Shown in pieces: positions 54,553 to 56,812 of a stretch of DNA of 64,000 nucleotides (position 1 is the stretch's first letter; each line of letters begins with the position of its first letter). This DNA is from Escherichia coli. GTDB lineage: Bacteria; Pseudomonadota; Gammaproteobacteria; Enterobacterales; Enterobacteriaceae. The notes under the pieces are model-generated. The model searched no databases. It was not told the origin of the DNA and worked only from the letters and a program-made list of their open reading frames with translations. The DNA lies in NCBI RefSeq assembly GCF_003334405.1, contig NZ_QOWM01000004.1. One strand, written 5' to 3'. The position numbers and the translations under genes are program-made.

Positions 54553-56812
54553 ATGAAAATAACGACAGTCGGTGTATGCATAATTAGCGGAATTTTTCCG
54601 TTGCTGATTTTGCCCCAATTGCCTGGGACATTAACCCTTGCGTTTCTGACTCTCTTCGCCTGCGTACTGGCATTTATCCCTGTTAAAACCGTCCGTTATA
54701 TCGCGCTGACGTTGCTGTTTTTCGTTTGGGGCATATTATCAGCAAAGCAAATTTTGTGGGCAGGAGAAACCTTAACTGGCGCGACGCAGGATGCAATTGT
54801 TGAGATCACTGCAACTGACGGCATGACCACTCATTACGGTCAAATTACTCATCTACAAGGTCGACGTATATTCCCTGCGTCAGGTCTCGTGATGTATGGC
54901 GAATATCTTCCGCAAGCGGTTTGTGCTGGACAACAATGGTCAATGAAACTCAAAGTTCGTGCAGTTCATGGCCAACTTAATGATGGCGGCTTTGATAGCC
55001 AGCGTTATGCCATTGCCCAGCATCAGCCGCTCACCGGCCGTTTTCTGCAGGCAAGTGTCATTGAACCGAATTGTAGCCTGCGTGCACAGTATCTGGCGTC
55101 ACTACAAACAACGCTGCAACCCTATCCGTGGAATGCGGTTATTCTTGGTTTAGGTATGGGGGAACGGTTATCCGTCCCCAAAGAAATCAAAAATATCATG
55201 CGCGATACTGGAACGGCGCATTTAATGGCGATATCGGGATTGCACATCGCTTTTGCGGCGTTGCTGGCTGCCGGACTCATTCGCAGTGGACAAATTTTTC
55301 TGCCTGGGCGCTGGATCCACTGGCAAATACCATTAATTGGCGGAATCTGCTGTGCTGCTTTTTATGCCTGGTTGACGGGAATGCAACCTCCTGCATTGCG
55401 TACCATGGTGGCGCTTGCTACGTGGGGAATGCTTAAGTTAAGTGGGCGACAGTGGAGTGGCTGGGATGTATGGATATGTTGTCTGGCGGCAATTTTGCTG
55501 ATGGATCCTGTTGCCATTCTCTCGCAAAGTTTATGGCTCTCTGCCGCTGCGGTCGCGGCATTGATATTTTGGTATCAGTGGTTTCCCTGTCCTGAGTGGC
55601 AACTGCCGCCGGTATTGCGTGCAGTTGTTTCCCTCATCCATCTGCAACTGGGAATCACACTTCTGCTTATGCCCGTGCAAATCGTCATATTTCATGGCAT
55701 TAGTCTGACCTCGTTTATTGCAAATCTATTAGCAATTCCCTTGGTGACATTTATCACGGTTCCGTTGATCCTCGCCGCGATGGTTGTGCATTTAAGCGGG
55801 CCGTTAATCCTGGAGCAAGGGTTATGGTTTCTTGCCGACCGGTCTTTGGCTTTACTTTTCTGGGGGTTAAAGAGTTTGCCGGAAGGGTGGATCAACATTG
55901 CTGAATGTTGGCAATGGCTATCATTTTCCCCATGGTTCTTACTGGTGGTATGGCGATTAAACGCCTGGCGAACGTTGCCAGCAATGTGTGTGGCTGGAGG
56001 CTTGCTGATGTGCTGGCCGCTGTGGCAAAAACCTCGACCTGACGAGTGGCAGCTGTACATGCTTGATGTCGGGCAAGGGCTGGCAATGGTGATAGCCAGA
56101 AACGGCAAAGCGATTCTCTATGACACAGGACTGGCCTGAAGGGGATAGTGGGCAACAACTGATTATCCCCTGGCTCCACTGGCATAATCTTGAACCGGAA
56201 GGCGTTATTCTGAGCCATGAACATCTGGATCACCGGGGAGGGCTGGATTCAATATTGCATATATGGCCGATGTTATGGATCAGAAGTCCGTTAAACTGGG
56301 AACATCATCAGCCCTGTGTGCGTGGCGAAGCGTGGCAATGGCAAGGATTGCGTTTCAGCGCGCACTGGCCTTTACAAGGTAGCAACGATAAAGGAAATAA
56401 CCATTCCTGTGTGGTTAAGGTTGATGACGGGACGAATAGCATTCTTCTAACCGGTGATATTGAAGCCCCAGCTGAACAAAAGATGCTAAGCCGTTACTGG
56501 CAGCAAGTGCAGGCAACATTGCTTCAGGTACCTCACCATGGCAGTAATACCTCATCATCGTTGCCATTAATTCAGCGAGTGAATGGAAAAGTGGCACTCG
56601 CATCGGCATCGCGCTATAACGCATGGCGACTGCCCTCTAACAAAGTTAAGCATCGCTATCAACTGCAAGGATATCAATGGATTGATACTCCACATCAAGG
56701 TCAAACAACGGTCAATTTTTCAGCGCAAGGCTGGCGGATTAGCAGCCTCAGGGAGCAAATTTTACCTCGTTGGTATCATCAGTGGTTTGGCGTGCCAGTG
56801 GATAACGGGTAG
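54553..56812 (+). pseudogene. ycaI: ComEC/Rec2-family competence-like membrane protein, apparently split by a frame break near 56131-56139
   Basis: N-terminal part (ATG 54553, AGGGAGGGG Shine-Dalgarno) runs in frame 1 to a TGA at 56137-56139; the rest continues in frame 2 from 56120 to 56812 and carries the metallo-beta-lactamase motif HEHLDHRGG. The two parts overlap by 20 bp and together are about 754 codons. Either a genuine frameshift or a base-calling error. Confidence 0.5.

Follow-up and report, generated by a model that had tools for sequence, protein, structure and literature searches.

The DNA analysed here, a stretch of 64,000 nucleotides referred to below as the window, is an Escherichia coli chromosomal segment that extends from poxB to cmoM, and we consider it highly probable that its ycaI gene, a member of the ComEC/Rec2 family located between ihfB and msbA, carries an inherited 5-bp slippage deletion at a mutational hotspot, with a null or severely crippled gene as the most likely outcome. 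Two copies of the TGGCC unit are found at this site in 5,403 of the 5,426 complete E. coli genomes surveyed, against one copy in 21 and three copies in 2, and the frame-disrupting indel that sets the window apart from the 5,403 is reproduced in independent assemblies. ycaI is the sole broken gene in the window, as the other 47 HS-annotated coding sequences that were compared are all full-length. This is an ordinary frameshift pseudogene, which arises by a well-understood mechanism, has already been flagged in public annotation, and matters little beyond it; only mildly new is the point that a 13-nt tract acts as a recurrent, homoplasic indel hotspot in the E. coli ComEC homologue, and our literature search found no paper describing this ycaI frameshift or its recurrence.

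The lesion in ycaI and its surroundings

The ycaI pseudogene occupies positions 54553-56812 of the forward strand, as do the reading frames, repeat, and motif described in this section, and measures 2260 bp compared with the 2265 bp of the intact gene; the identical sequence in strain HS is annotated by PGAP as 'ComEC family protein, frameshifted'. An N-terminal open reading frame (ORF) of 528 codons begins at the annotated start, 54553, and runs to an in-frame TGA (54553-56139, with the premature stop that results from the frame shift at 56137-56139), after which the protein continues in the +1 frame, within an orphan ORF of 230 codons (56120-56812). The latter reads MTQD and then, from 56132, YcaI residues 529-754, which make up the remaining metallo-beta-lactamase (MBL) domain, including its HEHLDH (HxHxDH) metal-binding motif (56216-56233, YcaI residues 557-562), which in this arrangement is cut off from the protein's membrane portion. 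Both ORFs, with the HEHLDHRGG motif in the second, had been located at these positions in an earlier note on the window, and both are indeed present. The +1 frame is open only from 56096 and overlaps the first frame over 56096-56136, and no Shine-Dalgarno sequence was found upstream of the ATG at 56120.

Comparison with K-12 defines the lesion to the base. The N-terminal ORF has 0 mismatches to K-12 YcaI residues 1-528, and the orphan ORF, beyond its MTQD, has 0 mismatches to residues 529-754; chance can be set aside, since together they cover a known protein exactly. At the junction, K-12 MG1655 reads GGACTGGCCTGGCCTGAAGG and the window GGACTGGCCTGAAGG (in a shorter comparison, CTGGCCTGGCCTG versus CTGGCCTG), with exactly 5 bp absent, corresponding to one TGGCC/CTGGC unit. 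The ancestral allele, found in K-12 and nearly all E. coli, is GGA-CTGGC-CTGGC-CTG-AAGG, and the window allele is GGA-CTGGC-CTG-AAGG, such that the indel amounts to exactly one unit of a tandem repeat present in the ancestral allele. The residual repeat, CTGGC+CTG at 56131-56138, marks the deletion junction relative to both the MG1655 and the three-unit alleles, with the exact position within the repeat being ambiguous. Restoring TGGCC after 56136 yields a 754-codon ORF identical to K-12 YcaI (WP_000705764.1). The earlier note had supposed the intact peptide to read LYDTGLAWPEGDSGQQ, which is correct for K-12 YcaI, and had on that basis proposed the loss of tggcc from a ctggcc-tggcc direct repeat, a proposal that the MG1655 alignment and the reinsertion bear out exactly.

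In Pfam terms, K-12 YcaI consists of DUF4131 (an OB fold, residues 27-157), the Competence domain PF03772 (residues 201-467, E = 4e-53), and Lactamase_B (residues 505-686). All three features that identify a ComEC/Rec2 gene, namely the Competence domain, DUF4131, and an MBL domain with HxHxDH, are encoded in the window, the MBL domain out of frame: the N-terminal ORF holds the first two domains and the first 24 MBL residues, and no single continuous ORF of about 754 codons covers all three. Since the TGA comes directly after codon 528 and everything beyond it is encoded in the +1 frame, the window gene is a ComEC/Rec2 pseudogene rather than an intact member of the family.

The essential gene msbA, 36 nt downstream of ycaI, is intact, and no non-synonymous changes in msbA were found between divergent haplotypes. 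Insertions in ycaI are tolerated in K-12 (PMC8151780), and polarity on msbA is therefore not a concern. A sigma-70-like site, TTGGCG-17-TAGAAT, is located at 56787-56815, in the 3' end of ycaI and 34 nt upstream of the msbA start; it is a candidate promoter that could drive msbA independently of ycaI translation. The promoter and terminator scan of ycaI returned promoter-like matches no commoner than those in shuffled sequence.

Recurrent change at the (CTGGC)2CTG tract

The window allele is shared by a small and heterogeneous set of genomes. An 81-nt query identified 17 complete genomes identical to the window, which include four separate assemblies of strain HS as well as isolates from humans, poultry, pigeons, water, and vegetables from several countries. 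The one-unit set is counted at 21, a figure that includes a 21st genome absent from the listing. The earlier note had asked whether the break runs across a phylogroup, and it does not: it is confined to 0.4% of complete genomes, and over 24.5 kb many genomes of phylogroup A match the window everywhere other than at the 5 bp, which they retain. Together with the otherwise complete identity of the window protein to that of K-12, this near-identity indicates that the loss in the window is recent, and the same is true of each ycaI loss.

Three carriers stand well apart from the HS type. Over ~6 kb, GF131, EC19, and JNEC-KY208 differ from HS by 94, 116, and 65 SNPs, respectively, compared with only 2 SNPs between HS and the intact MG1655, and each of the three has SNPs of its own right beside the junction. 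The nearest relatives over 1.2 kb are of the IAI39/CE10 type for GF131 and of the ST648 type for EC19, all with two units, while for JNEC-KY208 the genomes S19-651 and STEC17-183 are identical over 1.2 kb save for the 5 bp. Because the nearest relatives of the divergent carriers all have two units and the flanking SNPs are private, the contraction must have arisen at least four times. The 17 HS-type carriers may go back to one event or to several, the flanking 24.5 kb being the same in many genomes of phylogroup A. JNEC-KY208 carries, in addition, a 1-bp deletion early in ycaI (equivalent to window position 54672) that brings a stop after residue 51; the two deletions add up to 6 bp, which formally restores the frame after the second, with ~488 codons between them out of frame. 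A second lesion of this kind is as expected of a dead gene. The tract has also expanded, at least once: the two three-unit genomes, CUVET19-1426 and W21, have gained 5 bp, which frameshifts ycaI with a stop after residue 539, and show no difference from HS at any aligned base over 6 kb.

No other short tandem repeat of ycaI that is prone to frameshifts is as long as (CTGGC)2CTG, which measures 13 nt and has a GC content of 77%. At two control repeats of 5 nt x2 in the same gene, AGTGGAGTGG and TGCTGTGCTG, explicit queries for the contracted alleles found none among ~4,370 and ~2,900 scorable genomes, respectively, genomes being scored only when near enough to the K-12 background. These queries replaced an earlier control in which a 91-nt wild-type stretch spanning two other repeats was sorted by identity bands, which was confounded by five SNPs that B2 strains have there. 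The tract thus combines a one-unit indel, change in both directions, and a recurrence exceeding that of two comparable repeats of the same gene, and the slipped-strand origin proposed in the earlier note gains support from the three-unit allele, the independent recurrence, and the unchanged controls. On these comparisons of genomes, the tract seems best regarded as a site-specific indel hotspot and not as a sign of general ycaI decay, although part of the recurrence could stem from truncation being tolerated or selected for at this point, and not from mutation rate alone.

The following course of events is likely. Replication slippage (slipped-strand mispairing) would have removed one unit, 5 bp, of (CTGGC)2CTG; the loss shifts the frame after Ala528 into an immediate TGA and leaves the gene as a 528-codon ORF encoding the OB fold, the channel, and an MBL stub, followed by a 230-codon out-of-frame MBL ORF with neither a ribosome-binding site nor an export signal. 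The hotspot has contracted at least four times and has also expanded, each loss being recent and set against a background of purifying selection.

The closest parallel is the (CTGG)3 frameshift hotspot of lacI, where single units are gained or lost (Farabaugh et al. 1978, cited after the summary in PMC12606429), together with the Streisinger slipped-strand model. Shared features are a short, GC-rich, CTGG-containing repeat, gain or loss of a single unit, change in both directions, independent recurrence, and a frameshift null allele. The two differ in that lacI has three 4-nt copies, whereas wild-type ycaI has a 5-nt unit in 2.6 copies (13 nt); in that the evidence for ycaI is population-genomic (23 of 5,426 genomes) and not a measured mutation rate; and in that the contracted ycaI allele has no repeat left and should be essentially irreversible. 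In natural populations the tract neatly parallels the lacI CTGG hotspot and, as a homoplasic marker, could mislead indel-based typing.

Consequences for the ComEC homologue

Once repaired, ycaI shares with the ComEC/Rec2 channel, as represented by B. subtilis ComEC and H. influenzae Rec2, the DUF4131-Competence-Lactamase_B organization and the HxHxDH motif, whereas the window ORF is broken after residue 528 and the MBL nuclease is uncoupled from the channel. The break, after Ala528, falls 24 residues inside the MBL domain and N-terminal to HEHLDH. In ComEC, the C-terminal MBL domain is an extracellular, Mn-dependent nuclease, and in B. subtilis its inactivation lowers transformation 10- to 100-fold, whereas a comEC null gives zero transformants (Silale et al., PMC8579336). 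Because the C-terminal fragment of the window lacks the first beta-strands of the domain and an export signal, and the domain works outside the cytoplasmic membrane, we infer that this fragment, if translated separately, would be unable to complement the membrane-bound one from across the membrane. As a ComEC homologue, the window allele is most probably null or severely crippled. The earlier note had suggested that the break pseudogenises the gene; the label agrees with the 'frameshifted' call of PGAP, while complete loss of function is something that we only infer.

An alternative reading, which we judge unlikely, holds that the 528-residue fragment works as an MBL-less 'DC-type' ComEC, possibly a less efficient one, so that the gene has lost a domain and not its function. 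DUF4131 and the Competence domain are fully kept in the fragment, as they are in 14 ComECs from known transformable species that naturally lack Lactamase_B (Pimentel & Zhang 2018, PMC6299819); B. subtilis with a nuclease-dead ComEC retains 1-10% of wild-type transformation (PMC8579336); and in most carriers the N-terminal ORF is free of secondary lesions. The carriers are, however, too recent for the absence of lesions to be meaningful, their protein being that of K-12, and JNEC-KY208 does have a second, early frameshift. The likeness to the DC-profile proteins is one of DUF4131+Competence content; these are evolved, stable proteins, whereas the ycaI fragment is an evolutionarily days-old truncation that ends in a 24-residue MBL stub, and the protein may lose stability through such a remnant of a beta-sheet domain.

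Selection on the intact gene points the same way. Between divergent haplotypes, ycaI has a dN/dS of 0.13-0.24, alike before and after the break, and the gene, MBL domain included, is thus under purifying selection in E. coli, though weak for a membrane protein. The MBL half taken separately gives 0.14-0.33, like the remainder, and because it is under the same purifying selection as the rest of ycaI, the domain is not dispensable in E. coli in the long term, in contrast to the situation in the DC-profile ComECs. It also weighs against residual function that no robust YcaI-dependent E. coli phenotype has been established. The literature on the need for YcaI in DNA import is mixed, as the natural transformation of E. 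coli with plasmids is ycaI-independent (PMC6135910), whereas a study from 2026 reports that artificial transformation is reduced when ycaI carries a nonsense mutation (PMC12844161), and the role of intact YcaI in DNA uptake, or in any E. coli phenotype, is not firmly established. It is quite improbable, in our estimation, that the tract repeatedly and irreversibly uncouples the MBL nuclease from the channel to leave fragments with some activity, that is, a natural 'nuclease-less ComEC'; were this so, the recurrence would reflect tolerance of, or selection for, truncation at the break.

The earlier note had called ycaI the only ComEC-like homologue present, which is consistent, for the 64-kb window, with the gene list and with the statement that most bacterial genomes encode one competence-domain protein each (PMC6299819). 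The source strain and its HS-type relatives are without an intact ComEC homologue and are therefore unsuited as 'wild type' for tests of cryptic competence or of the use of DNA as a nutrient.

The repeat might also be conceived as a contingency locus subject to phase variation, by which the DNA-uptake channel would be switched reversibly between an on and an off state, given that one-, two-, and three-unit alleles exist, in independent backgrounds, and that the two-unit state alone is in frame. We regard this as highly improbable. Known contingency loci have tracts far longer than two units and switch reversibly at high frequency, neither of which applies to the ycaI repeat: the ON state accounts for 99.6% of genomes, an allele reduced to one unit is left with no repeat for slipping back, the four HS assemblies are all in the same state, and JNEC-KY208 has gained a second lesion.

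Hardly credible is the further proposal that a full-length or complementing protein is made from the broken gene, through a +1 shift of the ribosome at GCC-UGA or through renewed initiation from the ATG at 56120, for although the frames overlap over 56096-56136, that ATG lies 17 nt before the stop, and an AGGA is found 3 nt 5' of the GCC codon at a spacing that loosely recalls prfB, GCC-U is a non-slippery P-site context for prfB-type +1 sites (the full context being GCC-UGA-A), the ATG has no Shine-Dalgarno sequence, and the two-frame arrangement is unconserved, occurring in 0.4% of genomes with a single ORF in the other 99.6%. A separate MBL fragment would, moreover, be without its first beta-strands and without an export signal, although the domain acts extracellularly (PMC8579336).

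Authenticity of the allele and kinship of the window

The deletion is a genuine inherited allele, and an assembly error is very unlikely. The contrary view, that an assembly or sequencing error in the window conceals an intact 754-codon ycaI in the organism, can point to the fact that no complete genome in the collection matches window positions 39500-64000 perfectly, and we give it next to no credence. The identical allele is shared by 17 complete genomes that come from a variety of laboratories, hosts, and countries, with HS records that differ in length; the exact 528-residue product occurs on 403 public contigs and the exact product of the 230-codon ORF on 490, in a wider protein collection; and LH13-b and a7, the best complete-genome matches to 39500-64000, both carry the allele. 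PGAP marks ycaI as 'frameshifted' in all ten variant genomes inspected (eight one-unit, two three-unit). The clean loss of one 5-bp non-homopolymer unit is also, to our knowledge, untypical of sequencing-platform error. The error alternative raised in the earlier note is thereby effectively excluded for the allele, given the 21 complete genomes, four HS assemblies among them, and the 403 contigs.

The window is a close relative of HS with the same ycaI allele, and not HS itself. The two are identical over 52900-59400; elsewhere there are 62 mismatches in the last 48 kb and 131 in the first 16 kb. A 501-nt match at 100% had pointed to the HS reference record as the source of the window, a candidate that was rejected because the sequences differ outside 52900-59400. 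Among the reasons for keeping the two apart is ycaK (39902-40492), which forms an unbroken ORF of ~196 codons in the window but is 'frameshifted' in HS, where it is the second pseudogene. A query with the 24.5-kb segment proved uninformative as a test of clonality, as phylogroup-A genomes that do not carry the allele match it apart from the 5 bp. Positions 1-16013 of the window, from poxB to clpA, are 99.15% identical to HS, compared with 99.85% for the remainder, and the alignment is offset by ~109 nt at its left end, while near 16 kb, in the clpA/tRNA-Ser/infA intergenic region, the two sequences differ in length by ~114 nt. This pattern of divergence in the first 16 kb suggests a recombination boundary or a mobile small repeat.

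Several minor observations concern ycaI elsewhere. Short YcaI products are recorded in Shigella flexneri and S. dysenteriae (164 and 95 residues), which suggests fragmentation, some perhaps being partial products at contig ends. In the ecoli_genomes collection, four ycaI matches belong to entries described as plasmids; a 91-nt segment from the Competence domain is unmatched in 30 of the 5,426 genomes; and strain L37 (CP034589.1) has ycaI matches in two separate places. The plasmid-record matches, the unmatched genomes, and the double match in L37 hint at other routes of ycaI disruption or relocation. Elsewhere in the window, the intact ftsK gene contains, at 25674-25894, 5.7 copies of a 39-nt unit with 88% identity, which encodes the Gln/Pro-rich FtsK linker.
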